Shown: positions 19,865 through 64,000, counted from the stretch's first letter. The stretch is DNA of 64,000 nt from Minisyncoccota bacterium (GCA_014376695.1 JACMRA010000002.1:7323-71322); one strand, 5' to 3'. Program-made: numbers and translations. Notes: generated from the letters alone by a model not told the origin.

Positions 19865-19868
19865 CTAT

Positions 19869-38831: not shown

Positions 38832-41678
38832 ATGAACTCTCCAAAGAACTCTAATTTTTATCAAGATAAAGTATATCAATTACTATCAAAAGTAGCTAGA
38901 ACCGAGCCAACCGTTGAGTTAGAGCTGTATTGGCTTAAGCGTTATCAAGAAATCACCCAAAACCTAAGCTTTAGCCTGAGTGAGCATACCGTGGAAATGG
39001 CCTTTGAAGACATAGTTACACGACCAAGTACTCCTAGCGGACTGATTAATATAGAACAGATAATTGACGACAAAAATCAAATCCAAGAAGCTAACCTTCA
39101 AAATATTATAGAAACAGCGATCCGTTTACTAGACGCTATCTTGGATATAATTAATTTTGATGATGTTGCCAAAAAAACCGTTAAGGAATTTCGCAAAATT
39201 GCCATTGGCATTGAGAATTTAGATAGCTATTTAACAATCCCTGAGCTACTGATTGACCAAGTAGATTACCTAGGCGAGTTGATAAGTAATAGTGTTTATC
39301 GAGCCTCGGAGTCGCTAGCTGAAGAGAAAGGAGCCTGCCTTCGATGGGAGGATATCAAAAGCGAAATAAGTTCAAAAAGCTTCGAATACTGGTTTAATCC
39401 TGATAGTGGCGAAATTCGAACTAGCCTTGAAATACAAGAATATATCAATAACAATCCGGAATCACGGCCTAAAATTATGGGCGAGTTTGAGATTGTAGCA
39501 CGACGCGGTAGCCATTTGTTATTATATGCCAATACTCCAGAATGGTTAAAATGGTCAGATCGAAAGCCCTCTCAATCACCGCCAGCTGGCGAATCTAATA
39601 TCGGGAATGAAGAAATCGAGGACGAGCTTGCCTTGGAAATTATTGACGAGCCTATCGAATCTGAGTCGGAAGATGAAATTCAATCAGAAATTCAATCTGA
39701 GCTTGAAGCCACGGTAGAAGATGAGATAGAATCGGAGGAGGAGATTAAAACAATATTAAAAGATGAACAAATTGAATTACCAGAGTTCCTCCAAAAAAGT
39801 GCCCCTCTAGTAACTCCAACAGCTCTAATTGACCAGGAAAAGCTGAGCTCAAGTTTGGCTCAAGAAATAGACTCGCTTAATCAGCACATCATTAAGGTAA
39901 ATTCATCAAAACCAATTACGAATACCAATGACGCACCTGTTTCCAAGCTCGGAAAAGACCATAGTAAAAATTTTGCGTTTCCTGATATGATTGATATGGA
40001 AGACATTTTGCCAGGTTTGATAGGTGATACAAAAAAATGGGACAAAGATGAGGACGATTTTAATAGTATTTTTGGACTGGGTAAACTGACCACTCACCCC
40101 GTAAAGCCAAATAACAGCAAGGCGCAAATTCAACAGATTGAAGAAGGTCGGGTTCAGCCAATAAAGGTGGAAATGGCTAAAGATCAAGAAATGGTTAAAA
40201 ACCAAGAAACTGACTCCGAAAACCAAACCCCTTTACCTACCGAAGAGATTTCGGGAGCTGAGATTGCCGAAGAAGATTTGGAAATTGCTAAAATTTTACC
40301 ACAGATTACAACTATTTTTGGAATAGGGGAACTGGTCAAGGTCATATCGACAAGTGGAGTTTCTGATTTTTATCAGATTGTAGAAATTTTACTTGATAAT
40401 AATATACTATGTTACCATCTTACTGATCGGGACGATGCTCAAGTTGTCAAGATTTGTTCGGAGGGCGAAATACAGCCGGCCTTGCTCGAAGAATTAATTC
40501 TGTCAGCCAATATCGGTACTAGAATTAAGAATAATGAGACCGAGGAAAACAATATCCCCGAAATAACTCAAGATAAAGTCGAGGTCAAGCCCGTGAGCGA
40601 GTACTTTGCGCAAGCAATTGTCTTTAATCAAAATGGCCAAGTGTTGCTTTCTGGTGATAATTTGCCGCAGATTCTCATACCGCAAGATGCAAGTAATGCA
40701 GAAACTCTGAATAATTATTTGGCAAATAGCCACAATATTGCCATCAAAGATGTTGAGGAGATTGGGACATTTGCTAGCGACGATTGCATTAAGACAATTT
40801 TTTTGGGGCAGTTAGATGATGAGTCTAATCAAACTAAAGCCTTAGGTTTATCCGTTGTAGATATTGATCAGGCTCTGGTTCTAGTACCTAATCTTGAAAA
40901 GTACCTATCCAAAGCATCCGAAAAAGAGATGCAGGCCAAGAAAAGGTTTGCTCAATTAAACAACCAGCTTAAAATCGCGGTTGGTGAAAATCAAAACCTC
41001 AAGCAAAAAATTCGATTGCTAGGCCTAAATTTGCAAGTAATTGCAGACGAAAATGGCGGTAGTCGCGTAGGTGATTCGAACAATATCCAAAAAGCAATCA
41101 ACACTCGAGGAGATTATAAATATTTACATATTACCGAACATTCAAGGTTTTCCAAATTCTTTCCGGTGATTGAACAGGTGATTGAAGATGATGAAATTGG
41201 TAAAATTACTCTCAATATCCAGTACGATAGTTTCGGGGCCAAAAAAGCCTCTATTGTAGTAGATAGCGAGAAGCTTCGGGATAAAGACTATACGCTTTTG
41301 ACTAGTTATCTTAATTTGGTCAATACTTCACTGGCTAGTGGAGCTAGTCTTGCCGATGTGTCTTACGTACTTGAGCATCAGGGAAAAGGTAAGCTGGATT
41401 TTGGGAATAATTTAATTAATAAGATTTTATTGATACTGTCGCTGTGTTTCTTAGCGATGCCGCGATCTATCGAACAGATTAATTCCTCCGATATAATTAT
41501 TGTAACACTGGCTAAGGTGCTCGATTCGCTAAATCGTAATCAATCGTTATTGGAAATTGTCCTAGAGGATGACATCCGACCGGAGAGCAAAACAGAGGTT
41601 ATTAGTCATTCTAATCAATCGGCCGCGGAGAAATCAAGTCCAAAAAGTAGCCGCTTCCAAAAAAAAGCTAGAATCTAA
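38832..41678 (+). CDS. Ribonucleotide-reductase-large-subunit-like protein, C-terminal half, with a roughly 500-aa acidic/novel insertion
   Basis: TPSGLINIEQI...AIRLLDAILDIINF...FRKIAIGIENLDSYL...ASESLAEEKGACLRWE parallels E. coli NrdA LCTLSAFNL...AVRALDALLDYQDY...RRTLGIGVINFAYYL...ASNELAKEQGACPWFN. The conserved Cys is replaced. An acidic repeat follows (ESESEDEIQSEIQSELEATVEDEIESEEE). The C-terminal block is GKITLNIQYD...LLTSYLNLVNTSLASGASL. Confidence 0.45.
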   Translation: MNSPKNSNFYQDKVYQLLSKVARTEPTVELELYWLKRYQEITQNLSFSLSEHTVEMAFEDIVTRPSTPSGLINIEQIIDDKNQIQEANLQNIIETAIRLLDAILDIINFDDVAKKTVKEFRKIAIGIENLDSYLTIPELLIDQVDYLGELISNSVYRASESLAEEKGACLRWEDIKSEISSKSFEYWFNPDSGEIRTSLEIQEYINNNPESRPKIMGEFEIVARRGSHLLLYANTPEWLKWSDRKPSQSPPAGESNIGNEEIEDELALEIIDEPIESESEDEIQSEIQSELEATVEDEIESEEEIKTILKDEQIELPEFLQKSAPLVTPTALIDQEKLSSSLAQEIDSLNQHIIKVNSSKPITNTNDAPVSKLGKDHSKNFAFPDMIDMEDILPGLIGDTKKWDKDEDDFNSIFGLGKLTTHPVKPNNSKAQIQQIEEGRVQPIKVEMAKDQEMVKNQETDSENQTPLPTEEISGAEIAEEDLEIAKILPQITTIFGIGELVKVISTSGVSDFYQIVEILLDNNILCYHLTDRDDAQVVKICSEGEIQPALLEELILSANIGTRIKNNETEENNIPEITQDKVEVKPVSEYFAQAIVFNQNGQVLLSGDNLPQILIPQDASNAETLNNYLANSHNIAIKDVEEIGTFASDDCIKTIFLGQLDDESNQTKALGLSVVDIDQALVLVPNLEKYLSKASEKEMQAKKRFAQLNNQLKIAVGENQNLKQKIRLLGLNLQVIADENGGSRVGDSNNIQKAINTRGDYKYLHITEHSRFSKFFPVIEQVIEDDEIGKITLNIQYDSFGAKKASIVVDSEKLRDKDYTLLTSYLNLVNTSLASGASLADVSYVLEHQGKGKLDFGNNLINKILLILSLCFLAMPRSIEQINSSDIIIVTLAKVLDSLNRNQSLLEIVLEDDIRPESKTEVISHSNQSAAEKSSPKSSRFQKKARI

Positions 41679-47777: not shown

Positions 47778-48977
47778 CTAAAGTTTAGTTATTGCTTTAA
47801 TATTATCTCGAAAGGCTTGGGTGCTAAACCTTTGGGCTGATTGGCGTATGTATTCTGTGTCAAAGACACCTTGAGTATTTAACTCTTCGAATTTAATTAT
47901 CGACTTTTTGAGGCTCTCCACTTCTGGCTTGTCAAAAAATACACCATTTTTATTGTCGATGACATATGTTAATGCCCCGCCCTCAGCTAAGGCAATCAGT
48001 GGTATGCCAGCTGCCAAGAACTCAATTGGCGCAATCCCAAAGTCTTCTTTGCCTGGGAACAAAAAGGCCTTGCAAGTAGTCATAAGTTCGCGTAGCTGTG
48101 CGTCGGTAGTTCGCCCAAGAATTTGGATATCGACTTTTTTGCTCGGATTGGCTATTTTAAAATCATCGATTTGCTTTTGAAGGGTTATTCTGTCGGATTC
48201 TAGACCGAAGCCGCCGCTAATAACAAGCTTTTTTTCTAATTCTAAGCAGGCTTGAATGGCCATATCTATGCGTTTATGGAAGCTGATACGACCGTGGGAT
48301 AAGTAAAAATCTTGGATTAATTCGCGTTTCCTCTCAATTGTATTGAATTTGACTGTGTCAACTGGAGGGTAAAGAACTTGAGATTGGGTAGTGTATTTGT
48401 CCCAAACTTGAAATTGGATATACTCCGAATTGGCCAAGGTGATTACTTTTTGTTTTTTTAGATAGTTTACGGCACTTAAATCGAGTGGCTTGAGTAGAAA
48501 GGCGAAAATTGGTAGTAAAAAACGCTGAAATAAACCCAGATGGTTATAGTTATCTGGTGGAACTAGTCCGTTAAGATAACGGGTTGGAGTGTGGATATAG
48601 TGGATAATTTTGTAGCAGTTTTTGAATCTGACTTGTTTGGCGCAGTCAGTTGAGCTGATTAACACGCAGAAATAGTCTTTGATAGTTACGAGTCTCATCA
48701 TTAGGGGATATAACCAAAATAAATGCTTGGCAAATTGCCCAAAGAGACGTTGATTTTTTGAGTTTCGAATATTGAATAGTTTTTGGATTAGACTTGTTTT
48801 GATCCGACCTTCTGATTCGGCCAGTTTAATTGCTGGAGAGTCCTCAAATTTTTCGGGAAAATAAAAGGCTGTGTAAAGATCTGCCTTGGGGTACATTATT
48901 AGCCACTGCTCCACTACTTTCTCAGCTCCTCCAAATTGGAACAAAAAATCATGGACAAGAGCAACTTTGAGATTCAT
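47778..48977 (-). CDS. Glycosyltransferase family 4 (GT-B, GT4/GT1-type)
   Basis: Start at MNLKVALVHDFLFQFGGAEKV. C-terminal EDFGIAPIEFLAAGIPLIALAEGGALTYVIDNKNGVFF (the E-x7-E region). The upstream part of ORF 47778..49094 overlaps the tRNA and was trimmed. Confidence 0.8.
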   Translation of the reverse strand: MNLKVALVHDFLFQFGGAEKVVEQWLIMYPKADLYTAFYFPEKFEDSPAIKLAESEGRIKTSLIQKLFNIRNSKNQRLFGQFAKHLFWLYPLMMRLVTIKDYFCVLISSTDCAKQVRFKNCYKIIHYIHTPTRYLNGLVPPDNYNHLGLFQRFLLPIFAFLLKPLDLSAVNYLKKQKVITLANSEYIQFQVWDKYTTQSQVLYPPVDTVKFNTIERKRELIQDFYLSHGRISFHKRIDMAIQACLELEKKLVISGGFGLESDRITLQKQIDDFKIANPSKKVDIQILGRTTDAQLRELMTTCKAFLFPGKEDFGIAPIEFLAAGIPLIALAEGGALTYVIDNKNGVFFDKPEVESLKKSIIKFEELNTQGVFDTEYIRQSAQRFSTQAFRDNIKAITKL

Positions 48978-49024
48978 AAAGCAAAAAAAATACAGGTCGA
49001 ACCTGTAAACAAAAAAATTAATAT

Positions 49025-49108
49025 TGGTGCGCGAGAAGGGACTTGAACCCTTATACCTTGCGGCGCTAGCTCCTAAGGCTAGTGTGTCTACCATTTCACC
49101 ACCCGCGC
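49025..49108 (-). tRNA. tRNA-Leu (anticodon UAG), type II with long variable arm, CCA encoded
   Basis: Minus-strand sequence: GCGCGGG-TG-GTGAAATGGTAGACAC-A-CTAGC-CTTAGGA-GCTAG-CGCCGCAAGGTAT-AAGGG-TTCAAGT-CCCTT-CTCGCGC-ACCA. The 7-bp acceptor has one G-U. The anticodon loop is CT-TAG-GA. Confidence 0.9.
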
Positions 49109-49219
49109 GTCTTACAACTTATATTCTAATTATAAGACAATATAAGTTTTTTTGTCAAAGTCCTTGTTGGGAGTTATTTTTAAACGGATTTGAAAGTATT
49201 TTGACCGTTACTAACTTTT

Positions 49220-50341
49220 TCAATTAATTTCTTCGGAACTATAAAACAAAATGTGAGAATCACTTGCTAATTTATAAGCATAGAGTGTGCCGCCTCTATA
49301 TTTTATATCAGTCAAATATTTCACTCTAAAATACAGCCCGTCAAGGAGAGTTACGCCATGATAAGGTAAAATGAAATTATTTTTGTCTATAGGTAAAAAA
49401 CCAAGATTAAGAGGTTTGGGAGAAAGTGCTAATCTAAGATGGTGCGGGGCCAATTTTTCTAAAAAATCTAACTTTTCCCGCAAGGCTAAGAAACCTAAAA
49501 ACTTTAGAGTGGTATTTTTAGCTTTTTTACTGAGTTTAGCTCTTAAAAACTCCACACTATGATCTTCTTTATACTTACTAAAGTTATAGATTTTTTTTAG
49601 AAGTTTTGTATTTTTTGTAGGAGGGGGAACTATTCTTAAGACTGAGCTCATTACCGTATTTAACTTATCTGTAAAAACTTTATCCCCCTCATCAAGTTTA
49701 GTTTTAAGATATCTGGTTTCTTTGTCCCATTGTTTATAAAAAGATGGGTATAAAGATGTAAGAATATCCAACTTAATCAGCTTAACACCTGTTATACCTA
49801 GATTCTTTATATACTCAGAAACTTTATTGACATAAGCGTCAGATCTATAATTTCGTATACCAAGGCTTCTGCGCAGAATACCTTCGCAAAAAAGATTGAC
49901 CAGAGCTCATGGTTTATATATTTGTCGAATAGCTAAAGTTAACCTCTCTACCTGTTTCAAAAAAAGTACCTCAGACAAATCTGGATAAATGGATTCGGTC
50001 TTTAGAGGGTTTGGAATTTTGAAAGGCAATGTCATTATCCCAAACTCAATAGGTAAATTTTTACTGGTAAAATAATCGATTTGCTTTAGCCAATAATCTT
50101 TATGATCCAAGGCAAACTCTCCAGCTCCAGATAAAAATTCACTGCTTATCAAAAGTAGAAACACTTTATTATTAAGGATTTCTTTATGTAATAATTCCGA
50201 ATTTACGTAAGTGCAGGTTTTAGCCAAAAGTTTTTTAACCTTATCGAAAGATATAGACTTATAAATTATTTTTGTCTTAGAATTCGATTCCAAAGTTTCA
50301 AAATCTTTAAAACCGTAAATATAGCTAGCTTTATTACTCAT
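49220..50341 (-). pseudogene. PvcA/DIT1-like (isonitrile-synthase family-like) gene interrupted by a single in-frame TGA (49907-49909)
   Basis: ORFs 49907..50341 and 49220..49771 are in the same frame with only one stop between them (..IRQIYKP-TGA-ALVNLFCEGILRR..). LPFKIPNPLKTESIYPDLSEVLFL...IYKP*A resembles the FPFKSxN..K....PDxAE...Y.PGA blocks I recall for PF05141. The family call is tentative. Confidence 0.4.
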
Positions 50342-50608
50342 TTGATGTAGGCATCCTTAATTATAATTTTATCTCTCGGTTTAGTACCGCTCAATCCTTT
50401 TGTAGAAATTAAAAACCATATTGCTTTAGCCTTACGGAGAGTTTTGGGATTAAACATTGTTTCTAAAGATGGATCTTAATCTTCTTCTTTTTTACCAAGA
50501 CTTGCTTCAAAACCTGTCCTTAGTTTATCTAAAGATGGGTTTGGCAAGTTTGGGGTTTGTGTTTCGGTCATATGATATAAAATGTTATTAAATTATAATT
50601 ATTTTGGT

Positions 50609-50819: not shown

Positions 50820-52814
50820 CTAATACCCCTTAATCACCCGCTCGATTTGATTTGACCAATAAATTTTGGTTTGAGCTTGGTTGTCGTCCATATTTTCTTT
50901 GGTGATTATGCTTTTGAGCAGGACTTTTCGACGCTTCTTTGGCAATTCGATATGGTCAATCCCGGCTAAGAATCGCCCTGTTGGTGAGTTATTGTTTTTG
51001 ATAATTTCTTGCGGGGTTCCAGTCGCAACAATCTGACCGCCGTTTATACCAGCTTTTGGTCCGACATCAACGATATAGTCACTGTTCATAATGGTTTCTT
51101 CGTCGTGTTCGACCACCAAAACCGTGTTACCAAGGTCTCGCAGTTTTTTGAGCGTGTTAAGCAGCTTAGTGTTGTCTCGTTGATGTAAGCCAATAGATGG
51201 CTCATCAAGGATGTAAAGAACACCCGTCAAGCCTGACCCTATCTGAGTGGCAAGCCTAATACGTTGAGCTTCTCCGCCTGACAAAGTGTCGGCGCTACGT
51301 GAGAGAGTAAGATATTCGAGGCCTACATCTTGGAGGAATTTGAGGCGGATTTCCACTTCTCGAAGAATCATTCGAGAAATTTCAGCTTCGGTCTTAGTTA
51401 GGCTAGTGCCCGTTCGAAGAGCTGTAAACCATGCCAAAGCGTCCTTGATTGATAAGTGGACAATATGATTAATTGATTGGCCACTCAGAGTTACTGAGAG
51501 AGCTTCTGGCTTAAGTCTGGCTCCTTTACAGTCGGGGCAGGCTTTTTTATTCATATAGCTTTCTATATCTCGGCGGGCTGCGTCAGAAGTTGTGTCTTTG
51601 TAGCGTCTTTTTAGATTAATTATTATCCCCTCGAAGCTTTCGTTACCGTAAAGAACGATATCACGGACTTTTTGAGGTAGTTTGTTCCAGGGTTGCTCTA
51701 GTTCAAAATTATATTTAACCGACAGGGTTTGAAAAGTCTTAGTCAGCCATCCGCCGCTCAAGCTCATACGAGAGATAGGTTTGAGACACCCTTCTAAGAT
51801 ACTCAAGGTCTCGTTAGGTACAATCAGCTTATCGTCAATTTCTGTGATTACGCCAAGGCCGTTACAAGTGGTACAAGCTCCGTGGGGGCTGTTGAAACTA
51901 AAGAGTCTTGGTTCGAGATTATCTGGAGTTCCGTGTCCATTTGGGCAGGCTCGGTTTTTATTGACGTGAATTAATTGCTTGGACTTATCTTCTTCTTCTA
52001 TTTTGAAAATCAGGGCTTTGCCATTACTGTATTTCATTGCTGTCTCTAGCGAGTTCATTAGCCGAATTTTGTTATCGTCGTTGAGAGTGACTCGATCTAT
52101 GACTACTTCAATAGTGTGTCTGAGCTGCTTGCTAAGTTGAATTTTTTCGGCTTCCTCGATTAAGATTATGTCACCATTGACCCGAATCCTTCTAAAGCCA
52201 TTCTTTTTTGCCTCGCTAATATGTTGCTTATGAACACCTTTTTGATCAGTTACTACTGGGGACAGAACGATAACCGTCTTGCCGTCCAATTCCTTAATAA
52301 GTCGACTGCAGATACTGGTTACTGATTCGTTGGCAATTACAGCATCACAAACCGTGCAGTGTTGCTGTCCTATTTTGGCGAATAAAAGACGTAAATAATC
52401 GTATATTTCGGTGATTGTCCCGACCGTAGAGCGTGGATTTTGAGATGTAGATTTTTGATCGATAGAAATAGCGGGGGATAGGCCGTCAATGGACTCAACA
52501 TCAGGTTTTTCTTTTAGGCCGAGGAATTGACGTGCGTACGAACTTAGGCTCTCGACGTAGCGACGCTGGCCTTCAGCGTAAATTGTGTCAAAAACTAAGC
52601 TAGATTTACCGCTGCCGGATAGACCACTAAAAACAACTAATTTGTTCTTTGGGACAATTACCGAAACATTCTTGAGATTATGCTCTTTGGCTCCCCGTAC
52701 TGTTATATAAGAGTTTGGATTAGGGACAAAGGTTGTATTAGCAAGGATTTCTGGCGAATTTAGCTCGGCTAATGTTAGGTTATTTAGATGATTTAGTTCG
52801 GAGATAGTCGTCAT
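50820..52814 (-). CDS. uvrA: Excinuclease ABC subunit A, first ATPase module only (C-terminal NBD-II missing)
   Basis: ITVRGAKEHNLKNVSVIVPKNKLVVFSGLSGSGKSSLVFDTIYAEGQRRYVESLSSYARQF, zinc modules, LSGGEAQRIRLATQIGSGLTGVLYILDEPSIGLHQRDN and VVEHDEETI are present. The ORF ends at 664 aa (UvrA is about 940 aa), just where the second Walker A should begin. Confidence 0.85.
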   Translation of the reverse strand: MTTISELNHLNNLTLAELNSPEILANTTFVPNPNSYITVRGAKEHNLKNVSVIVPKNKLVVFSGLSGSGKSSLVFDTIYAEGQRRYVESLSSYARQFLGLKEKPDVESIDGLSPAISIDQKSTSQNPRSTVGTITEIYDYLRLLFAKIGQQHCTVCDAVIANESVTSICSRLIKELDGKTVIVLSPVVTDQKGVHKQHISEAKKNGFRRIRVNGDIILIEEAEKIQLSKQLRHTIEVVIDRVTLNDDNKIRLMNSLETAMKYSNGKALIFKIEEEDKSKQLIHVNKNRACPNGHGTPDNLEPRLFSFNSPHGACTTCNGLGVITEIDDKLIVPNETLSILEGCLKPISRMSLSGGWLTKTFQTLSVKYNFELEQPWNKLPQKVRDIVLYGNESFEGIIINLKRRYKDTTSDAARRDIESYMNKKACPDCKGARLKPEALSVTLSGQSINHIVHLSIKDALAWFTALRTGTSLTKTEAEISRMILREVEIRLKFLQDVGLEYLTLSRSADTLSGGEAQRIRLATQIGSGLTGVLYILDEPSIGLHQRDNTKLLNTLKKLRDLGNTVLVVEHDEETIMNSDYIVDVGPKAGINGGQIVATGTPQEIIKNNNSPTGRFLAGIDHIELPKKRRKVLLKSIITKENMDDNQAQTKIYWSNQIERVIKGY

Positions 52815-54169: not shown

Positions 54170-54532
54170 ATGCCGACAACAGACTATAGTAATTACAAAT
54201 TAGGTCGCTTTTTGGTTATTATTTTGGTGCTTTGCTTACTTTCACTGCTAATTTGGCCGTATCTAAAAGCCGAATATTACACCCAGAAGTACGAAAAGCA
54301 ACTAGATATCGTAGCTATTTGTCAATCAGAAAACACAGGCCTTGGAGTAACTGGGTATAAAATACTTAATCATTCCCCAGAGTCAAGAACCTTGGAAATA
54401 TACTGTTTCTACACAAACTCCGAGCTAAACAATTATCTCAAACTAGAAAAGCAAGCAGACAATTGGAAGTCAATTTACTCCAACCGGTTAGTCAAGGACA
54501 GTTATATGTACTACCCATTTTATTATTACTAA
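54170..54532 (+). CDS. Hypothetical membrane-anchored protein
   Basis: 120 aa with one TM (FLVIILVLCLLSLLIWPYL). No family recognised. Confidence 0.4.
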   Translation: MPTTDYSNYKLGRFLVIILVLCLLSLLIWPYLKAEYYTQKYEKQLDIVAICQSENTGLGVTGYKILNHSPESRTLEIYCFYTNSELNNYLKLEKQADNWKSIYSNRLVKDSYMYYPFYYY

Positions 54533-54549
54533 ATTTATTTTTTGAGATT

Positions 54550-55029
54550 ATGAAAGTTACCGAATTTTTAACTAAATTGAGACAATTAAACCAAGAGGAG
54601 TTAGCTCAGACCAGCGGCATTGGCCAAGTAATTATAGATTCTTTGAACAGTTTTTTGACATCGAAGCGGTATTTGGATTTGATTGATGGGTTTGGGGAGC
54701 TTGAGAGAGAGGATCAAGGGTTGAATTTGCTACTGAGGCAAAGCCTTGGGGTGTCTAACTTGGTAGGTGGACAGGACTTATCTGGCCAGACGATGGTAAT
54801 AACCGGTACAATGGAGATAAGTCGAACTCAACTAAAAGAGAAATTAGAAGAATGCGGGGTGAAAGTAACAAGTAGCGTTACCAAAAAAACTAATTATCTT
54901 TTGGCGGGGCAAAATAGCGGCTCAAAGTATAAAACGGCCAGCGAACTTGGGGTACCGATTATTGAAATGTCCACGTGGCAGGATCTAAAAAAATATTTAG
55001 AGACTGACAACGAAATCAAGCCTAGTTAG
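54550..55029 (+). CDS. Stand-alone HhH + BRCT protein equivalent to the C-terminus of NAD-dependent DNA ligase LigA
   Basis: From the first ATG: LAQTSGIGQVIIDSLNSFL (HhH) and LSGQTMVITGTMEISRTQLKEKLEECGVKVTSSVTKKTNYLLAGQNSGSKYKTASELGVPIIEM (LigA BRCT pattern GKTxVxTG...R......GAKVxxSVSKKTxxxxxGxxxGSKxxKAxxLGxxxxxE). There is no adenylation or OB domain. Confidence 0.7.
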   Translation: MKVTEFLTKLRQLNQEELAQTSGIGQVIIDSLNSFLTSKRYLDLIDGFGELEREDQGLNLLLRQSLGVSNLVGGQDLSGQTMVITGTMEISRTQLKEKLEECGVKVTSSVTKKTNYLLAGQNSGSKYKTASELGVPIIEMSTWQDLKKYLETDNEIKPS

Positions 55030-55677
55030 ATTATTGCCGATAGACTTTTTTTTGAGGATTTGGAATTTGCCGATTTGATTGGTGTTCTCAATGTGTGGCC
55101 CACCGCAAAACTCCCTAGAATAGATTGTTTGACCGTCTGCGAGGGTATAAATAGTTACTTTGTCGCCGTACTTCTCACCGAATAATCCAATTGCATCCAA
55201 CCCTTTTGCTATGTCAGGAGTTGTTTCAATTTTGGTCATTGTAAGGTGCTTGTCGATAATGGCTTGGACCTGCATCTCGATATTTGTTATAGTTTCTGGA
55301 GTGAGATCGCTCGAATTTAGATTAATATCAAAGCGGGCTTTATCTTCCAAAATGGCAGACCCCATTTGGTGCAGCTGCGTCCCGAAGATACTTCTCAACA
55401 CTTGGTGTAGAATATGCGTCGCCGTGTGCATTGCAATCGCCTTGGGGGAGTTGCTACCTAGGCCTGATTTGAATTGGGCAGTGGAGCTGCTTTGAGACAG
55501 GGTTTGATGACTCTCGATGAGTTTTTGTAGGTAATCCACATCCAAAATAAGCCCCTCTTTTTCGATCAGGTATTCGCTGATTTCAATAGGGACTCCATGA
55601 GATTGATATAAATCAAATGTTTTATTGGCTAGCCACTGGGGATCTAGCTTGGTAGCTTTAGGATTATTTGCAGTCAT
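54997..55677 (-). CDS. AlaX-like trans-editing protein: AlaRS helical linker plus editing (second additional) domain, no aminoacylation domain
   Basis: FDLYQSHGVPIEISEYLIEKEG (AlaRS FKLYDTYGFPxDL block), HTATHILHQVLRSIFG (HxxxH), GLFGEKYGDKV and CGGPHIENTNQIG (CxxxH zinc site). 226 aa. Confidence 0.75.
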   Translation of the reverse strand: MTANNPKATKLDPQWLANKTFDLYQSHGVPIEISEYLIEKEGLILDVDYLQKLIESHQTLSQSSSTAQFKSGLGSNSPKAIAMHTATHILHQVLRSIFGTQLHQMGSAILEDKARFDINLNSSDLTPETITNIEMQVQAIIDKHLTMTKIETTPDIAKGLDAIGLFGEKYGDKVTIYTLADGQTIYSREFCGGPHIENTNQIGKFQILKKKSIGNNLTRLDFVVSL

Positions 55678-57371: not shown

Positions 57372-57722
57372 TTAAGGTCGCTTCCACAGCAAAATTTTAT
57401 CCCGTGCAATTTCTTTGGCAAAAATTGGGTCAGTAATTTGACTCAACTCTTTAATATCAACTGAATACCAAAAGTCAGATTGATCAATTGCGTAATCCAA
57501 TTCGTTGATGGTAGGATGTCTAGTCTGGGGTGTATCGGTCGTAAGAATCAGCAGGTCAAAATCACTTTTGAGTTTGTAATCGCCTCTAGCTCTTGAACCA
57601 AATAGCCAGACTTGGCATAGGCTCGGAATATTTGCAAAGACTTCAGTCAACGTATTGATATGCTTTTGCGTAACTCCGTAGGTATTGGCAGGCCTACTTG
57701 GCGTTTGGGTACTCGTTGTCAT
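57372..57722 (-). CDS. Minimal nucleotidyltransferase (MNT) antitoxin-type protein
   Basis: WLFGSRARGDYKLKSDFDLLI is the GSxxxG..x(D/E)xD polymerase-beta NTase motif. It overlaps the upstream HEPN gene by 29 nt. Confidence 0.8.
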   Translation of the reverse strand: MTTSTQTPSRPANTYGVTQKHINTLTEVFANIPSLCQVWLFGSRARGDYKLKSDFDLLILTTDTPQTRHPTINELDYAIDQSDFWYSVDIKELSQITDPIFAKEIARDKILLWKRP

Positions 57723-58134
57723 AGATGGATTTTAGTTTTTGGTATAATTCTGTGAATATTTGGTTGTAAACTCTAATCACGTTTTGGGCAACTTGATTGG
57801 CCGTCCCCTCGTCGTATGTGTGAGCGAGTAAATTTCGACCTTTGATACTGGCTAGCCAATCCTCTTCATCTGTTATTAGATTGTGTTGAAAGGCTTTTTT
57901 GAGTGTAGCTCTTGGTGTGGCCTCGAATTCTAGTCCGGACTCTTGCATATACTCTTTGAGAGTTTTCCAAGCTAGTTCCCAAGTGAACTCATATCTCTGG
58001 ATTAGTGCATCTCGATATAAGTCATTATCAGGCTCGAGTCTAACTGCATCGATAGCTTCTTGTAATCGTTGTAAGGCTTTTTCGTAATTACGGAATTTAC
58101 CAGTGAAACCGGAGATTGGAGGGGTTGGTGTCAT
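57694..58134 (-). CDS. HEPN-domain protein, HI0074 (nucleotidyltransferase substrate-binding) family, toxin-type
   Basis: DALIQRYEFTWELAWKTLKEYM and RNLLAHTYDE (the Rx4H HEPN motif). Confidence 0.8.
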   Translation of the reverse strand: MTPTPPISGFTGKFRNYEKALQRLQEAIDAVRLEPDNDLYRDALIQRYEFTWELAWKTLKEYMQESGLEFEATPRATLKKAFQHNLITDEEDWLASIKGRNLLAHTYDEGTANQVAQNVIRVYNQIFTELYQKLKSIYDNEYPNAK

Positions 58135-58141
58135 AATCTAT

Positions 58142-59908
58142 CTAGAGTAAATTACTATTTTTAATATCAAGAATTTCAGGTATGATAATTTTCTTTAAAT
58201 ATTTATCAACTGATTTTTTAAATTCTGCATTTTTAGTGAACCTTGGAGCGTTTGAGATTATACTAGGCATTTCTTGTACCTTTTTTTTCCAAGCAGGTAA
58301 AAATATTTCGGTTGCACAAACCTTTACAAAGTCTCGGAGGTGATTTTTAATTATAGCCTCTAAAGCATTAAGTCGCTCACTCGGTTCAATCAATGTAATA
58401 ATCCGCGAATTTAAAATGTACAGAAAATAGTACCTAGAGTGTTTAAGTATACTTTCTAAACCTTTATTGGCGCTTTTTTGTTCATTACCACTCAGTAATT
58501 CATATGCTACATTTTCAATAATCTTTTTCTTATCCAATTCTAAGAACATTTGCATTACTAAGTAGTACTCTTTTAGATCGTCTTCCGGTATCTCATCATC
58601 ATCTTTTATATTTAGGATCTCGTCTGGGAATATTGTGGAAAACTTGCTTTGATTATCAAGCTCAATTTTAAACAGTGCGGCTTGACCTTTTTTTGCAATT
58701 TCGGGGAAACCTTTATAAGCTGTATAAGCAAGGATAAAATCTGTAAATTTAACTTTATGCCGAATTGTTAAATTTTGAAATTGTTCGGGTAGCTTTATGC
58801 CTGATTTATATTCTAAATCAATGTAACCATCTCCGCATTGTAGGAAGTATATCCTAATGACGCTCCAAAGTGGTCTATTTGAATAAAACTGCCATAAGTC
58901 TATCTTATTTTGACTATTAGTAAATTTAACAATATTTTCAAGAATATCTGAGTTTTTTTCGATAATTAAAATTTTTGCCAATACTGATACTTTTTCTCGT
59001 TGCATTTTTATAGCGTTTTTAATTGAGTGAATTGTTTGCGCTCCGTTTACTACTTGAGGATTTTCTAGTTTATAAGAGCCTTGATTTTCTGTAACAGAAG
59101 TGCAGACAATTGTAATCCCGTTATTGTAAAACCAGAACAATTCCGGAGTTTCATTAACTGTCATTGTAATATTTTTGTTAATCTTACTATTCCCGAGACC
59201 GAATCTAATATTTTCATCGAAATATTCTTGATCGGATAGCTTGATTACATCAGTACCACTCATAGTCATAATATGAGCTTTATATTTATCATCTTGAGTT
59301 TTATAATCAAATTTTGACATCTTACCTTTATCGACAAAACTGACCATAATCGGCGCTACAGATCCATTTAACTTTCTTAAAATTGATTGCTCACTATAAA
59401 CATTGACATCAATAATTTCACTTCCTTCAATGACGTTATTTAGCTCATCTTGGAAGTCCTTCATTTTAATTTCACCGCAATTAGTTATATATATGTATAT
59501 AATTTTATTACATTCATTAAAATAAGTATATAAATTAGCATCGAGATAGTTTTTTCGGCTTTCAGCCCATTTATTTCTTGATTTTACGGTACTTAATTTT
59601 TCTACGAAATCAATAGAATCTGACTTTTCTTCACTTTGTAGATCTCGTAACTCGCTATTATTTTTATATTTACCCTGATATATTCTAAGGATTTTTTCCT
59701 CATCATTGTAATAGTACGCATCGATACCGCAGTCATTCTTACGGCCACATAATAAATTTTCAATATCTTCTAAATCTTCCTCCGGGATAATGTCATTTTC
59801 AATATTTTTTAAAAACCATTTCACAAATGTATTACCTTGTTCTGTCGTGTTTTTGTTTGTAGAAAAATTTTTATATGCTTTGTCGATGATTTCAATTAGT
59901 TTGCTCAT
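58142..59908 (-). CDS. AIPR-family abortive-infection protein
   Basis: Start at ATG (MSKLIEIID). N-terminal nuclease-like block CGIDAYYYNDEEKILRIYQGKY. Central VVNGAQTIHSI motif, characteristic as I recall of PF10592. Lies 7 nt upstream of the HEPN gene. Confidence 0.65.
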   Translation of the reverse strand: MSKLIEIIDKAYKNFSTNKNTTEQGNTFVKWFLKNIENDIIPEEDLEDIENLLCGRKNDCGIDAYYYNDEEKILRIYQGKYKNNSELRDLQSEEKSDSIDFVEKLSTVKSRNKWAESRKNYLDANLYTYFNECNKIIYIYITNCGEIKMKDFQDELNNVIEGSEIIDVNVYSEQSILRKLNGSVAPIMVSFVDKGKMSKFDYKTQDDKYKAHIMTMSGTDVIKLSDQEYFDENIRFGLGNSKINKNITMTVNETPELFWFYNNGITIVCTSVTENQGSYKLENPQVVNGAQTIHSIKNAIKMQREKVSVLAKILIIEKNSDILENIVKFTNSQNKIDLWQFYSNRPLWSVIRIYFLQCGDGYIDLEYKSGIKLPEQFQNLTIRHKVKFTDFILAYTAYKGFPEIAKKGQAALFKIELDNQSKFSTIFPDEILNIKDDDEIPEDDLKEYYLVMQMFLELDKKKIIENVAYELLSGNEQKSANKGLESILKHSRYYFLYILNSRIITLIEPSERLNALEAIIKNHLRDFVKVCATEIFLPAWKKKVQEMPSIISNAPRFTKNAEFKKSVDKYLKKIIIPEILDIKNSNLL

Positions 59909-60034
59909 AACTTTGAATTTCAAATTTATTATAGTGAACTATAATTCCAATTAACACTAAAAGTCAAGCTCATAATTCAGACTGTTTGTGTAAAAAAGCT
60001 AGTACCAGTTATAGTAATCCTCCTTTATAATAAC

Positions 60035-60928
60035 CTAATCATTCTTCAGCACATTTAAGAATACATCGTTTGGGATATTGACATTTGCAAATTGCTTCAT
60101 ACGCTTTTTGCCTTCTTTTTGCTTGTCTAGGAGTTTCATGCGGCGTGAGACATCTCCACCATAAAGTTTGGCAGTTACATCTTTTCGAAATGGCTTGACG
60201 GTTTCGCGGGCTATTACTCGGGACCCTATTACCGCTTGGATGGCTACTTCTACTTGTTGGCGAGGGATTAGTTCTTTGAGTTTGGTGCAGATTTTGCGCG
60301 AGAGGGCTTCGGAGTTGGCTTTGTGACTTATGGTACTTAGCGGTTCGATTAGCTTGCCGTTAAGGAGGACATCGACTTTTACGAGATTGGATTTCTTGTA
60401 TTGGCTTACTGAGTAGGACATTGAGGCGTAACCTTTTGTGCCTGATTTGAGCTGGTCATAGAAATCAATAATTACTTCACCTAGTGGGATGCTGGCCACA
60501 ATCTGGATTTGACCTAGCGATAGGCTGTTCATAGCAAGCACTTCACCTCGGGCAGTGTTGATTAGCTCAATCACCTTACCAGTAAAGTCATTTGGTGTGA
60601 TAATACTCATCTCGAGATACGGCTCGTAGATAGCCAGGATATTGCTCGGATCAGGTAAATCGGTCGGAGTCTTAACACTGGTAAAGTTGTTTTTGTCGAT
60701 GTCTTTGACATTGATTTGGCTCTGGGAGATGCCTCCGAGTTCTGGTGCTAATATTTCGACTAAAGTCTCTTGCTCATCGGGCGCGGGGTAGTAGTTATTA
60801 ATTAACTCCTTAATTAGACTGAGCCTAGCCTCGGGTCTGATTGGTTGGGTTAGGATTTCTTTGATTTTTGGGTCGAGGTTACTAAGTTCTAAGAACTCCT
60901 TGAATTGTTTGCGTTGGTCGATGGTCAT
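60035..60928 (-). CDS. lepA: Elongation factor 4 (LepA) C-terminal half only (domain V + LepA_C); GTPase domain absent
   Basis: YEPYLEMSIITPNDFTGKVIELINTARGEV, DFYDQLKSGTKGYASMSY, LIPRQQVEVAIQAVIGSRVIARETV and LYGGDVSRRMKLLDKQKEGKKRMKQFANVNIP are near-identical in pattern to EF4 residues about 400-599. The first ~90 aa are at most a degenerate domain III. Confidence 0.85.
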   Translation of the reverse strand: MTIDQRKQFKEFLELSNLDPKIKEILTQPIRPEARLSLIKELINNYYPAPDEQETLVEILAPELGGISQSQINVKDIDKNNFTSVKTPTDLPDPSNILAIYEPYLEMSIITPNDFTGKVIELINTARGEVLAMNSLSLGQIQIVASIPLGEVIIDFYDQLKSGTKGYASMSYSVSQYKKSNLVKVDVLLNGKLIEPLSTISHKANSEALSRKICTKLKELIPRQQVEVAIQAVIGSRVIARETVKPFRKDVTAKLYGGDVSRRMKLLDKQKEGKKRMKQFANVNIPNDVFLNVLKND

Positions 60929-61025
60929 AGGTTTTTAGTTGATAAAGTTTAGAATTAAGTGTATATTTTAATTATAAATTCCCGTTAGGGACGACCCTCA
61001 ACAAAATGAGGGGTTAATTTTTACC

Positions 61026-61523
61026 CTAATGAATTGTTATTAGTGTAAGATAACTTTCTTCTTTAGCAACTTTGAGGATATTCTTAACTTCTTCTAGATC
61101 ATTAATAAAAGGGTTTAATAATTCTTGTGTCCAGATATGATCGTATGGATAAATACCACACTGATTTACAAGTTCAAGATTGGGGTAAGTCTGACTCTCT
61201 ACACTTTGGAAATAACTATAAATATCTTGGATGTGGGTGGCATTGAGGATATGGGCAATACCATCATAGTCAAATTTTTTCAAATTAATTCTATTTTCAC
61301 CAAAAAAAAGCTTAGTTTGAACAGGTAAATCAAAGGGATACTTACCATTTTTCAATCGATCTCTATACTTATGATTGACCAAAAAATCTAAAATATCATG
61401 AGATTTGTAAAATGTAAAACTATTGTCTTTACTATAGAATATAGAATCTAAATACTCCAAAGTCATATTTGTGTGATCGACTCCTTGATCTTTTATTAAT
61501 TGAAAAGTTATGCTAATAGACAT
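61026..61523 (-). CDS. YfbM/DUF1877-like protein
   Basis: 165 aa. CGIYPYDHIW...ESYLTLITIH parallels E. coli YfbM MEIYPGVTF...GNHALTVIVG. The length is similar. Confidence 0.45.
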   Translation of the reverse strand: MSISITFQLIKDQGVDHTNMTLEYLDSIFYSKDNSFTFYKSHDILDFLVNHKYRDRLKNGKYPFDLPVQTKLFFGENRINLKKFDYDGIAHILNATHIQDIYSYFQSVESQTYPNLELVNQCGIYPYDHIWTQELLNPFINDLEEVKNILKVAKEESYLTLITIH

Positions 61524-61534
61524 AAAAATAAATC

Positions 61535-62038
61535 TTAAATTATCCCATCAATAAAACCATATTCCAATGCCTCTTTTGGTCCAAAAGGGTTTTCTCCACT
61601 TGTTAATTCAGTCATAGTCTCATCACTTAATTTTGTTTTATGAAATAAGTACCCATCCCTAAATAATTTATCTCTAGCTTCTTTAGCGATAATTTTGTCT
61701 ATGTGATCAGTTTTTCCTTGTAAGCCAAAACCGCTACTGTGGGTTAAGAAAGTTGTAAATTTAGTTGCATATCTTTTATGCCCAGATTGCAGGACATATA
61801 CTGCCGCAGATGCACATTGTCCAATTACAACTGTATGAATTGGTTTTGGTGAAGATTCGATAAAACTACCAATAAGCCTCCACGTGCCGTTTCCACCATT
61901 GCAATCAATAAGAATCTCTATCAACTTGACTGACTCGTCTAAAATGGCTAACTCAATTTCTTTACAGATTTTAATAGCAAACGGTCCTGTTATAGTTTCG
62001 ATTAACCAGATTTTTTTGGTACTTGGGTTGAAGTTCAT
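61535..62038 (-). CDS. ClpP-family (S14) serine-protease-like protein, short form
   Basis: Start at ATG (MNFNPS). ILIDCNGGNG (ClpP INSPGG), VVIGQCASAAVYVLQSG (GQAASMG, Ser retained), FLTHSS (MIHQP, His retained) and KEALEYGFIDGI (EAxEYGLID). The third catalytic Asp is not evident. Confidence 0.65.
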   Translation of the reverse strand: MNFNPSTKKIWLIETITGPFAIKICKEIELAILDESVKLIEILIDCNGGNGTWRLIGSFIESSPKPIHTVVIGQCASAAVYVLQSGHKRYATKFTTFLTHSSGFGLQGKTDHIDKIIAKEARDKLFRDGYLFHKTKLSDETMTELTSGENPFGPKEALEYGFIDGII

Positions 62039-62168
62039 ATACACATACAATTACACTTTTATAATTTCTGTGCAACCTCGTTTTTTGTTGATTTGACAGA
62101 ACGGTGAAATATATTTTATATTAGGTTAAATAAGAGTATAACAAGCAATTAAATCAATCAGTTTTTCT

Positions 62169-63336
62169 ATGGATTACAAAAAAGAAATTATCACCTCAGC
62201 GCCTAATCAAAATAGGGGGGGATATACAACCAACTCGATTAATATCTATCGCATTATCAGAAATTTTGTGTAGAATTCAGGAATTGAAAACTGATAAACC
62301 TCTACAGCGGGTCCATATGTGGAATAATATCGGCTCAAATATAAAAGACGGATTGCTCGAAACTAAATACGAATTTTTTAAAAAACATGGTTTAGAATTC
62401 CCAAGTTTAAATTTAGAAATGGACGATTCCCTAGAATTTCAAACTTATTTAAGAAAGGTATTAGAATCACTAGTTTCTACGGGCGTGATATATAAAGACA
62501 GCGACACTTATAGTGCTTGTAGCGATTGTGGTCATTGTATCGGTATTTCGAGTAGTAGTAGAATTTCTAAATGTTCCAAATGTCCGAGTGAAAATATAAT
62601 TATGGAGGCCAGAAATGGATTGTTTTTAGACCTACCAACTGATAAAATATCTCTAATAAAAGGTAAGACGCCAGCGTTTAAAAATATCAAGCAATTACAC
62701 ACACGATTTAATCACCTCCCAAACAGGATAAATTTAGAAAAAATTCGACCAACAGGTTTATCTTTAGATTTTCTGGGATTTGATGGGTTTGTCTTGGATC
62801 CAAAGTTTGGAATCAGCTTATTACCTCACTTCGTTGCTCAGAAATATGAAGTTGATAAAATAACCCAAGTACAAGGCTACGAAACAATAACAAACACTGC
62901 TCCTTACACCAATACTATACTCTCAAATATCGATTTTGAATATATTTTGACAGGATTGGCTGATAATAATTGTCAATTTTTGGACGAAGAGGTTAATTTT
63001 GTATTATTTCATTTGCCGGTTTTTTTGATTGGATTTGACTCAGTCGTTTCCGAGTCGCGAATCGATCAGTTAAAAGAGGATTATAAAAAGACTGTCCGAA
63101 AACTATCGGCTGTAATTAACGGACTTGAGTTAAGTTCGGAGTCAGTTGTTCCATTAGACAGAGAACTATTAAATCAAGCGATTGATTATTTTGCTCAATA
63201 TAAGTACAAAGATGGCATTATTGCAATTAAAGAATTTGTCAAACAACTTAACAAAAATCCCGAACTGCAAAAACAGGTCTCAAAGAGCGATATAAATACT
63301 ATAAATCAAACTTTTGGACTGATCTTTAAAATCTAA
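62169..63336 (+). pseudogene. Class I aminoacyl-tRNA-synthetase-like (MetRS-like) protein lacking HIGH/KMSKS, interrupted at a G7 run (62215-62221)
   Basis: The ATG at 62169 gives MDYKKEIITSAPNQNRG. Removing one G joins it to ..DIQPTRLISIALSEILCRIQELKTDKPLQRVHMWNNIG (compare MetRS [51 protein letters not shown]). Also LVSTGVIYKDSDTYSACSDCGHCIG...KCSKCPS (zinc-knuckle CP insertion) and GLFLDL (HFFFDL). Confidence 0.4.
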
Positions 63337-63341
63337 TTAAT

Positions 63342-64000
63342 ATGTTTTTATTCAAACAAACTACAGCAAATTTTAGAAATATAAATATTTTATTCGCTCC
63401 CGGCCTCCCTGGAGAGATGACTCAGAGACCAATCTTTGATGATTTGTCTGCCCTTGGATGTGATATTTACTCGTTCTACTATTCTGGCACTTACGAACAG
63501 GTCGGAATTTTTGACCTAGAACAGGCAAATAAAGATTTGGTAAACGCTATACAAGAAATGGAGGATAAGAAACTGCCTTTTACTATACTTGGATACTCGT
63601 TTTCGACATATTTTTTACAAAAAATCGATTTGGCACAATATTCCAATATTCTGGGACTCTCTATGTTTTCACCAATTATGGGACTCGATCCGAAGTCTAT
63701 TAAGGCTGATTTTTTTGAAGAATTAGAAACTTTGCACAAGGATTCTACGCAACCGTTTAAATGTAATTTGGAATTATTGAAAACTCAAATACCCGCCTCT
63801 GAGCTTAATTTCGACTACTCATTATCTAAGTTTGCACTGTACAATTTCCCTGTAACTTTTGCGTATTCATTAAATGATACATTGATCAATGTCGACACAA
63901 TTAATTACAAATTACAAAATTATCGAATTCAACATACTTATAACAAGTTTTTAGTATGGGATAGCTCTGAGGGGTATCATAGACTCGATACATATTATAA
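63342..64000 (+). CDS. Alpha/beta-hydrolase-fold protein (partial, runs off the window end)
   Basis: Hand-translated open frame, not in the ORF track: MFLFKQTTANFRNINILFAPGLPGE...TILGYSFSTYF (nucleophile-elbow-like G-Y-S-F-S)...SLNDTLI...EGYHRL. No stop before position 64000. Confidence 0.45.
   Translation, partial: MFLFKQTTANFRNINILFAPGLPGEMTQRPIFDDLSALGCDIYSFYYSGTYEQVGIFDLEQANKDLVNAIQEMEDKKLPFTILGYSFSTYFLQKIDLAQYSNILGLSMFSPIMGLDPKSIKADFFEELETLHKDSTQPFKCNLELLKTQIPASELNFDYSLSKFALYNFPVTFAYSLNDTLINVDTINYKLQNYRIQHTYNKFLVWDSSEGYHRLDTYY

Follow-up and report, generated by a model that had tools for sequence, protein, structure and literature searches.

Positions 60035–64000 of a 64-kb stretch of Minisyncoccota DNA (JACMRA010000002.1:7323–71322; the whole stretch is called the window hereafter) hold five genes that seem to share a theme: a ClpP-like protease, a small YfbM-like protein, the C-terminal part of translation elongation factor 4 (EF4, or LepA), a protein resembling methionyl-tRNA synthetase (MetRS), and a hydrolase. 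Do they form one functional system? The initial annotation saw in them a possible single module in which translation-derived sensor or decoy domains are coupled to hydrolytic effectors, tied to the adjoining abortive infection (Abi) and toxin–antitoxin (TA) genes. We analyzed the locus on both strands and find the underlying observation largely right, and its unifying interpretation mostly wrong. With a probability of about 0.72, the 4-kb stretch consists of three independent units on a Patescibacteria chromosome, namely a native gene for the truncated EF4 (EF4-C), the ClpP-like gene together with a gene lacking homologues (the ORFan), and the MetRS-fold gene together with its hydrolase-like partner. 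The last is the best-supported functional coupling inside the cluster and, as we read it, the sole real one. The most interesting result lies outside the earlier hypothesis: EF4 is without its GTPase domain in a large clade of Patescibacteria, and is split again in a subclade.

The coordinates, strands and spacings of the five genes agree with those first annotated, as judged by an open reading frame (ORF) map and the sequence itself. On the minus strand, the ClpP-like gene is followed after an 11-nt gap by the ORFan of 165 amino acids (aa) and, past a 97-nt spacer, by the 297-aa EF4-C gene. On the plus strand, the MetRS-like ORF ends at 63336 and the hydrolase ORF opens 5 nt on, at 63342, and leaves the window. 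The features are:

60035–60928, minus strand: EF4-C gene, 297 aa (Pfam EFG_C and LepA_C, NCBIfam lepA)
60644–60928, minus strand: lineage-specific N-terminal extension of EF4-C, aa 1–95
60371–60631, minus strand: domain V of EF4-C
60044–60364, minus strand: LepA C-terminal domain of EF4-C
60929–61025, minus strand: spacer between the ORFan and EF4-C genes, containing an AT-rich stretch that resembles a promoter and a pair of short hairpins
61026–61523, minus strand: ORFan gene, 165 aa, DUF1877/YfbM-like below threshold (Pfam, 20.4 bits)
61535–62038, minus strand: short, divergent ClpP-fold serine protease gene, 167 aa (Pfam CLP_protease, E = 1.9e-14)
62051–62168, no strand: spacer from which the ClpP-like and MetRS-fold genes diverge, carrying promoter-like sites; left edge of a putative recombination tract at ~62050
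62169–63336, plus strand: gene for a MetRS-fold pseudo-synthetase, frameshifted at a run of seven G (G7) at 62215–62221 (profile, AlphaFold and Foldseek)
63342–64000, plus strand: 5′ part of the partner gene, 219 codons, leaving the window; alpha/beta-hydrolase-like domain (homologues at loci L007 and L010)

By its protein similarities, the host is a Patescibacteria/candidate phyla radiation (CPR) bacterium, Paceibacterota/Minisyncoccota-like. The named EF4 homologues are labelled 'Patescibacteria group bacterium', and PBP2 of the window is 79% identical to a protein from a Candidatus Paceibacterota (Minisyncoccota) metagenome-assembled genome.

EF4-C is set apart from its neighbors

EF4-C was found in five other genomic contexts (loci L002, L003, L005/L006, L092 and L098), none of which has a relative of the ClpP-like gene, the ORFan, the MetRS-like gene, the hydrolase gene or the adjoining AIPR gene near it. 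Its neighbors there are housekeeping or unrelated genes, and a loose synteny of EF4-C with the N-terminal piece of UvrA is common to the window, L003 and L098. Composition differs too. The GC content at third codon positions (GC3) is 0.49 for EF4-C (overall GC 0.44) and mostly 0.35–0.45 for other native genes, compared with 0.26 for AIPR, 0.24 for the ORFan (GC 0.29), 0.28 for the ClpP-like gene, 0.29 for the MetRS-like gene and 0.33 for the hydrolase gene. Furthermore, EF4-C has a promoter-like site of its own, as does AIPR. Because contexts, composition and promoter-like site differ in this way, we take EF4-C for a native gene with imported accessory DNA on either side.

Among the defense models of PADLOC-DB 2.0, none was matched by the five proteins, whereas the neighboring AIPR (AbiU, E = 3e-30) and MNT (PDC-S09) proteins do match. 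A search for repeats and att-like sites around the low-GC genes returned AT-rich chance matches only. The AIPR/AbiU-like gene (58142–59923, minus strand, GC 0.30) is separated by 8 nt from a downstream HEPN (NTase_sub_bind)/MNT pair (57372–58134, minus strand) with a native-like GC of 0.41. In L092, which has the closest relative of this EF4-C, a piece of UvrC stands in the place of AIPR; from this, AIPR looks like a recent insertion. A gene neighborhood with an apparent theme can thus arise by coincidence, where split genes of the chromosome itself and imported accessory genes happen to meet.

EF4-C is a selected gene, not a remnant

The initial annotation held that the EF4 gene retains domain V and the C-terminal domain only, and Pfam, NCBIfam and tblastn agree with it. 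Pfam places EFG_C at aa 100–186 (E = 5e-22) and LepA_C at aa 189–295 (E = 4e-45, profile positions 1–107 of 107). EF4-C covers positions 376–595 of the 595 in the NCBIfam lepA model TIGR01393, scoring 282.4 bits, which is below the equivalog cut-off of 533.9 bits. By tblastn, aa 384–593 of E. coli LepA are 47% identical to EF4-C. Neither the G domain (PF00009) nor domains II and III were detected in the ORF by Pfam or NCBIfam, and over the whole 64-kb window the E. coli sequence matched with aa 384–593 only.

Relatives that align over their full length, N-terminal extension included, are 275–303 aa long and 50–66% identical (search of 5.8 billion proteins); domains V and C-terminal are 61–81% identical to those of four relatives. 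Over 25 family members these two domains are strongly conserved, and the motif block GGD..RK.KLL.KQKEGKKRM is invariant across the family. The head extension is variable, 64–94 aa, and keeps only a weak F/L-x-E-F-L-x-L-S/T-G/D-L pattern among the 25. Measured against the four relatives, nonsynonymous divergence (dN) is 0.16–0.37 in domain V plus the C-terminal domain and 0.75–0.87 in the extension, with synonymous divergence (dS) saturated. Every comparison of EF4-C or of the ClpP-like gene has a saturated dS, which limits the statement to dN being far below dS. The conserved family and a dN far below saturated dS make EF4-C a selected gene and not a remnant, which bears out the earlier argument against simple decay; by these comparisons, this native gene is under purifying selection.

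We also considered the extension as a degenerate domain III and rejected this, as it has no homology to EF4 domains II–III (hhalign probability 0.7%).

Hairpins and a TATAAT box had been reported ahead of the EF4 gene. Two small hairpins, together with promoter-like and terminator-like matches, do occur in the spacer upstream of EF4-C; however, the fold of 60929–61025 (−18.5 kcal/mol) is no better than those of shuffled sequences (z = −1.3), and the hairpins are not significant.

EF4 without a G domain in Patescibacteria

EF4/LepA, which is among the most conserved translation factors of bacteria, is nearly universal in them, and no proposed mechanism is known that does not depend on its GTPase. 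Its cellular role is debated, with back-translocation, 30S biogenesis and stress translation as candidates. Compared with the E. coli protein, EF4-C has domain V and the LepA-specific C-terminal domain intact and highly conserved, but it is without the G domain, domain II and domain III and carries a new N-terminal extension.

This condition is not peculiar to the window. Among the 120 best EF4-C homologues, 31 have at most 310 aa, 87 have 400–440 aa and none exceeds 440 aa; PF00009/GTP_EFTU is found in none of the 120. The ~405-aa form starts exactly at domain II and carries domains II, III, V and C-terminal. At four loci with this form (L004, on a contig of 1.27 Mb, L012, L093 and L094), no DNA coding for LepA aa 1–190 was found within 6–10 kb, and at each of three control loci from ordinary bacteria (L013, L016 and L019) there is one contiguous LepA match covering aa 1–594. 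In L002 and L003, LepA aa 191–378 (domains II–III) are encoded by a separate gene of 230–241 aa, 3–8 kb from the EF4-C gene and bearing a C-terminal tail of 45–55 aa. These searches show the closest EF4 homologues in the clade to be predicted proteins without a G domain, with the II–III and V plus C-terminal parts further split in a subclade.

The ~405-aa form is widespread in Patescibacteria, where it is annotated plainly as 'translation elongation factor 4'. Among the papers searched, none describes a GTPase-less or split EF4, or split genes, in Patescibacteria/CPR.

Two further genes recur at the split loci. Directly upstream of EF4-C in L002 (9356–9973) and L003 (9359–9970) is a gene for a conserved, membrane-anchored protein of ~204 aa without a family match, and a FemAB-family gene comes after the EF4 II–III piece in both. 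Neither adjoins EF4-C in the window.

What could such a protein do? EF4-C may still act on the ribosome. It could be joined non-covalently with the other piece or pieces via the new terminal extensions, or else it could serve as a GTP-independent binder. With domains II through C-terminal, or V and C-terminal alone, kept under strong purifying selection and no G domain within the protein or close by, the EF4 of this radiation amounts to a natural dissection experiment on which parts of the factor carry selectable function.

The MetRS-fold protein belongs to a family without HIGH and KMSKS

The second translation-derived gene was initially described as MetRS-like, with DIQPTR in place of the HIGH motif and no KMSKS. 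Most searches with this protein return nothing of the kind: Pfam, NCBIfam, phmmer against the Protein Data Bank (PDB), a 3-sequence profile and hhalign against E. coli MetRS gave no significant match, and no tblastn match of E. coli MetRS touched the ORF. Pfam tRNA-synt_1g and NCBIfam metG match neither the window protein nor its homologue P0122. A word-based search found just two homologues (388 and 414 aa), with the N-terminus in frame, as carried by P0122 and P0123. An exhaustive profile search yielded 115 cluster representatives at 50% identity, mostly ~390–425 aa long.

The likeness emerges only with an alignment of 67 sequences; AlphaFold on 3 sequences gave a predicted local distance difference test score (pLDDT) of 32. 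The 67-sequence profile matches human MetRS (E = 4.8e-7), leucyl-tRNA synthetase (LeuRS; E = 2.8e-3) and further MetRS entries in the PDB. The AlphaFold model of P0122 has a pLDDT of 93 and a predicted template-modeling score (pTM) of 0.91, and with it Foldseek returned MetRS or the MetRS-like PyrN for all of the top 50 PDB matches (E = 7e-11 to 2e-8, TM-score 0.60–0.70). The Pfam model tRNA-synt_1g, by itself, matches only 3 of the 67 members (best E = 1.2e-3).

As to the signature motifs, none of the 67 has HxGH or HxxH in its first 60 residues, and a KMSKS-like string occurs in one of them and is absent from the window protein. The description of the gene thus stands. With HIGH in none of the 67 members and a KMSKS-like string in one, the loss of these motifs goes back far in the family and does not reflect decay at this locus. 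Other residues are family-invariant (P0122 numbering): APxQNR...ER, WN, Asp82, Arg190, Gly193 and Asp207-Pro208, as well as four zinc-knuckle cysteines that are invariant or nearly so.

The family shares with MetRS, a class Ia aminoacyl-tRNA synthetase (aaRS), its fold and a CxxC...CxxC zinc knuckle at the connective-peptide position. Unlike MetRS, it has neither HIGH nor KMSKS, is only ~390–420 aa long and, in the P0122 model, has a reduced helical C-terminal domain. MetRS-like domains also occur in biosynthesis, in hydrazine synthetases (PMC12376268), and the C-terminal domain of PyrN (PDB 9l8v) shares the fold; the present family differs from these in being paired or fused with a Pol-beta nucleotidyltransferase (NTase), not a cupin domain. 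With ~115 clusters and no Pfam or NCBIfam model to hold them, the MetRS-fold/NTase proteins represent a new branch of aaRS-derived proteins. A phage origin of the gene was looked for, with no match in the phage collection or in PHROGs.

The MetRS-fold protein is coupled to its partner

Directly after the MetRS-fold gene, at gaps of 1–5 nt, the partner gene is found in three diverged lineages, those of the window, L007 and L010. The homologues in the latter two (661 and 461 aa) are 50% and 39% identical to the window protein, respectively, and, being full-length, reveal an N-terminal hydrolase-like domain, then a Pol-beta NTase domain, then a helical domain.

The call of an alpha/beta hydrolase is plausible, if weakly supported. 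Ser86 (YS[FY]S), Asp179 and His213 are invariant across the three homologues and come in the order of alpha/beta hydrolases; on the other side, the best PDB profile match of the N-terminal domain, though to an alpha/beta hydrolase, is weak (E = 0.021), and Pfam has no match for the hydrolase-like product.

The NTase domain, which lies beyond the window's end, has the pattern GS...SDxD...D, with G28, S29, S39, D40, D42 and D74 invariant in six sequences. A profile search of the PDB matches it best to an NTase-domain protein (9xbd, E = 2.8e-5) and to the streptomycin 3''-adenylyltransferase AadA (E = 6.5e-3); Pfam Polbeta is sub-threshold at ~1e-3. Like the Pol-beta NTases of the aminoglycoside nucleotidyltransferase ANT(3'')/AadA and MntA types, the partner has hG[GS]-x(9-13)-SDxD and a third Asp, but its NTase is fused behind an alpha/beta-hydrolase-like or a MetRS-fold domain. 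Indeed, MetRS-fold and the same NTase are fused in four family members, P0180, P0183, P0208 and P0174, the last of which (977 aa) adds a domain resembling choline kinase and aminoglycoside phosphotransferase (APH).

Adjacency and fusion together make the functional coupling of the MetRS-fold protein to its hydrolase-like/NTase partner, as deduced from gene order and domain architecture, well supported. The earlier idea of a catalytically stripped translation protein with a hydrolytic partner therefore survives for this pair, but not for EF4-C, which elsewhere does without these neighbors.

As for what the pair does, the MetRS-fold subunit may bind the substrate (an amino acid, an aminoacyl compound or a tRNA end), the NTase would carry out the nucleotidyl transfer of which the synthetase fold is no longer capable, and the hydrolase would cleave an ester. 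In L010, a kinase-like gene and a sugar-phosphate nucleotidylyltransferase (NTP_transferase) gene follow in the same tight operon. Because related operons and fusions add a kinase and a nucleotidylyltransferase, we favor small-molecule or envelope modification over phage defense as the likelier role of the pair. Going one step further, we would tentatively propose that the locus touches two novelties at once, a clade-wide EF4 without a covalent GTPase (either a GTP-independent binder of ribosome or tRNA, or an enzyme whose two or three pieces come together in trans via their new terminal extensions, within a lineage-wide fission of essential genes) and, separately, a new MetRS-fold/NTase enzyme system whose synthetase scaffold, having lost its ATP site, borrows nucleotidyl transfer from the NTase; this combined proposal is possible, though doubtful.

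The ClpP-like gene and the ORFan

The ClpP-like ORF (61535–62050, minus strand) has 171 aa counted from a TTG at 62050, or 167 aa from the probable start, an ATG at 62038. Its assignment to the ClpP family is upheld, as a divergent ClpP-fold protein: the Pfam CLP_protease model is matched at 54.4 bits against a cut-off of 20.2 (E = 1.9e-14, profile positions 16–179 of 182). It is far below every cut-off of the NCBIfam models for ClpP and for the related head maturation proteases (best 43 bits, cut-offs 228–361), and it matches a PHROG head maturation protease at E = 5.5e-13. In a manual alignment to E. coli ClpP, Ser (in GQCASAA) and His (in LTHSSG) of the catalytic triad are retained, whereas Glu stands where Asp would be expected. 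With ClpP (MEROPS S14) and the phage head maturation proteases it shares nearly the whole Pfam profile and, as aligned by eye, a Ser and a His at the catalytic positions. It differs from ClpP in its length of 167–171 aa, the lack of the N-terminal axial-loop region, the Glu for Asp and the score of 54 bits, and from the phage enzymes in having no phage genes around it. No close relative was found in the genome and viral contig collections searched. A copy of 65% identity is, however, located at the same position in L095 and L096 (dN 0.25, dS saturated).

The YfbM/DUF1877 assignment of the next gene fails. The match to PF08974 (20.4 bits, E = 6e-4) is below the gathering score of 22, no homologue other than itself was found among the 5.8 billion proteins, and there was no match in PDB, NCBIfam, PADLOC or PHROG; the gene is an ORFan. 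Together, the ClpP-like gene and the ORFan are an imported low-GC pair.

Frame breaks and a putative recombination tract at the MetRS-fold gene

The MetRS-fold gene starts at an ATG at 62169, its frame is broken by the G7 run at 62215–62221, and the longest intact ORF spans 62266–63336. With one G removed (G6), an intact ORF of 388 aa results, MDYKKEIITSAPNQNRGDIQPTR... In L095 and L096, which are independent assemblies from the European Nucleotide Archive (ENA), the MetRS-fold ORF is 99.7% identical at the nucleotide level, and the first 130 nt differ by indels at an A-run, a G-run and a third site:

Window: A6GA3, G7, CAGCGGG
L095: A9, G8, CAGGGG
L096: A9, G7, CAGGGG

In each case the indels interrupt the full-length frame but spare the 339 codons from Met45. 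The breaks could reflect recent inactivation, slippage at the homopolymers or errors of sequencing, or they could go with the use of an internal start. The gene may here be off, recently inactivated, or made in an N-terminally truncated form.

Identity to L095 and L096 rises from ~68% to ~99.7% at ~62050 and, in L095, falls again inside the hydrolase gene. Because of this mosaic of identity, we suggest that a tract over the MetRS-fold gene has recombined. The putative tract is ~1.4 kb long and centered on that gene. A promoter-like TTGACA-18-TATATT, with 11 of 12 matches, lies at 62093–62122 on the plus strand.

Three units or one imported island?

Several points weigh against the reading of three independent units and what we have built on it. 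First, the window extends only 3 kb past EF4-C on its far side, so that any II–III piece or G-domain gene of this organism is out of view; among the five contexts, L002 and L003 alone have a II–III piece close to EF4-C; and as the scan for a G domain reached 6–10 kb per locus, 'GTPase-less' and 'trans-assembled' are not separable. Second, the NTase, kinase and hydrolase domain matches are each below the Pfam threshold, and the gene context of the MetRS-fold family is known from three lineages. Third, the ClpP-like gene is again divergently upstream of the MetRS-fold gene in L095 and L096, although its copy there is just 65% identical.

This last point would suit a different view, in which the four low-GC genes were imported as a single accessory island, serve a common function and happen to lie beside EF4-C, the region being a variable one that has also acquired AIPR. 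The function might be anti-phage or toxin-like, acting on tRNA or aminoacyl compounds, or that of a small-molecule modification or resistance cassette. The four genes do have a low GC3 in common (0.24–0.33), there are divergent promoters in the 118-nt spacer, the ClpP-like/MetRS-fold arrangement is kept in L095/L096 despite the divergence of the ClpP-like gene, AIPR (AbiU model, E = 3e-30) and HEPN-MNT are neighbors, and MNT and ANT enzymes are similar to the NTase domain. Set against this, no relative of the ClpP-like gene or the ORFan is near the MetRS-fold/partner pair in L007 or L010, PADLOC gave no match, and the operon of L010, like the fusion protein P0174, suggests the kinase/nucleotidylyltransferase chemistry that is typical of small-molecule or envelope modification. 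Moreover, the near-identical tract in L095 spans the MetRS-fold gene only, that is, the genes are not moving as one block. We therefore consider an imported island with a shared function unlikely.

Gene fission, not decay, probably explains the partial genes

Could the partial genes, truncated EF4 and the MetRS-like gene among them, simply be pseudogene fragments decaying in a reductive genome, or assembly artefacts? Many housekeeping genes in the window are indeed partial:

14890–15636, plus strand: TopA piece, profile positions 1–203 of 632
19854–21362, plus strand: PcrA piece, profile positions 342–628 of 725
50820–52814, minus strand: UvrA piece, 664 aa, profile positions 4–625 of 943
54463–55029, plus strand: LigA piece, profile positions 528–662 of 664
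54997–55677, minus strand: AlaRS piece, profile positions 393–589 of 595

The LigA and AlaRS pieces are convergent and overlap by 33 nt. Since TopA, UvrA, LigA, AlaRS and PcrA are partial in the window besides EF4, gene fission here appears to be genome-wide. The same break points are seen in relatives: UvrA has 667 aa in L003 (64% identical) and in L098, and L003 has TopA positions 1–202. Relatives show split genes that the window does not, such as a C-terminal piece of UvrC in L002 and L092 and a C-terminal Mur-ligase piece in L098; PcrA in L094 is split around an unrelated gene. As the break points are common to related genomes, we regard the truncated housekeeping genes as split genes, not wreckage.

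A graveyard of remnants, the alternative offered in the initial annotation, is accordingly mostly wrong, and we rate it as very improbable. It can call on the frame-breaking indels at the 5′ end of the MetRS-fold gene in three assemblies and on the PvcA/DIT1-like gene at 49211–50356, which is cut by an in-frame TGA; these are the only real damage. But EF4-C has 30 homologues of at most 310 aa among the 120 best, with dN far below dS; UvrA, TopA and EF4 break at identical points in diverged genomes that were assembled independently; a lack of HIGH and KMSKS characterizes a whole family of 67 members that keeps other invariant residues; and the ClpP-like gene, too, is under purifying selection by its dN of 0.25 with dS saturated.

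The single five-gene sensor/decoy and effector module with which we began deserves hardly any credence: its genes are physically adjacent and lie beside AIPR/AbiU-like and HEPN-MNT genes, both translation-derived proteins are without catalytic parts, and the MetRS-like and hydrolase genes are truly coupled, but the arrangement does not recur in the five other EF4-C contexts, GC3 splits native EF4-C from its low-GC neighbors, a promoter-like site belongs to EF4-C itself, which a pair of weak hairpins separates from the gene upstream, its truncation is clade-wide and part of a genome-wide pattern, the closest EF4-C relative (L092) has a UvrC piece and not AIPR as its neighbor, and no PADLOC model is matched by any of the five proteins.

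An alternative genetic code, with TGA as a sense codon (codes 4 or 25), was also considered as the source of 'truncated' genes and rejected, as the long ORFs have no in-frame TGA, the one PvcA-like gene excepted. TGA is the stop codon of 3 of the 44 long ORFs, and the code looks standard. A full-length release factor 1 (RF1) gene is at 30604–31665 (plus strand), and no RF2 was seen in the window.

Dispersed split genes are known in Nanoarchaeum equitans, for example those of AlaRS and reverse gyrase. The present case is like these in having essential multidomain enzymes as separate, unlinked genes in the genome of an ultra-small symbiont, a split AlaRS included, with break points at domain borders that are kept among relatives. 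In contrast, the host here is a bacterium, and the proteins hit are EF4, TopA, UvrA, UvrC, LigA and PcrA. The kept break points in TopA, UvrA, UvrC, LigA, AlaRS, PcrA and EF4 point to pervasive fission in these ultra-small bacteria, which bears on genome annotation, completeness estimates and ideas of minimal cells.

Other features of the window

A 728-aa ORF at 12364–14550 (minus strand) encodes a complete sigma-70 factor (regions 1.2 to 4) fused to a C-terminal TsaE domain, of N6-threonylcarbamoyladenosine (t6A) biosynthesis. At 19511–19864 (plus strand) is a holin-like protein with four transmembrane segments (Phage_holin_4_2, E = 2e-10), overlapping the start of the C-terminal PcrA piece by 11 nt. 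The PvcA/DIT1-like gene (49211–50356, minus strand, GC 0.30, one in-frame TGA) is pseudogene- or import-like; it adjoins tRNA-Leu(TAG) at 49025–49108 (minus strand), which overlaps the annotated start of a glycosyltransferase ORF (47778–49094). Finally, two very long ORFs are almost without family signal: the 948-aa ORF at 38832–41678 (plus strand) matches only ~130 aa of the ribonucleotide-reductase barrel, and the 977-aa ORF at 22559–25492 (minus strand) has no match and an unusual GC content at second codon positions (GC2) of 0.53.

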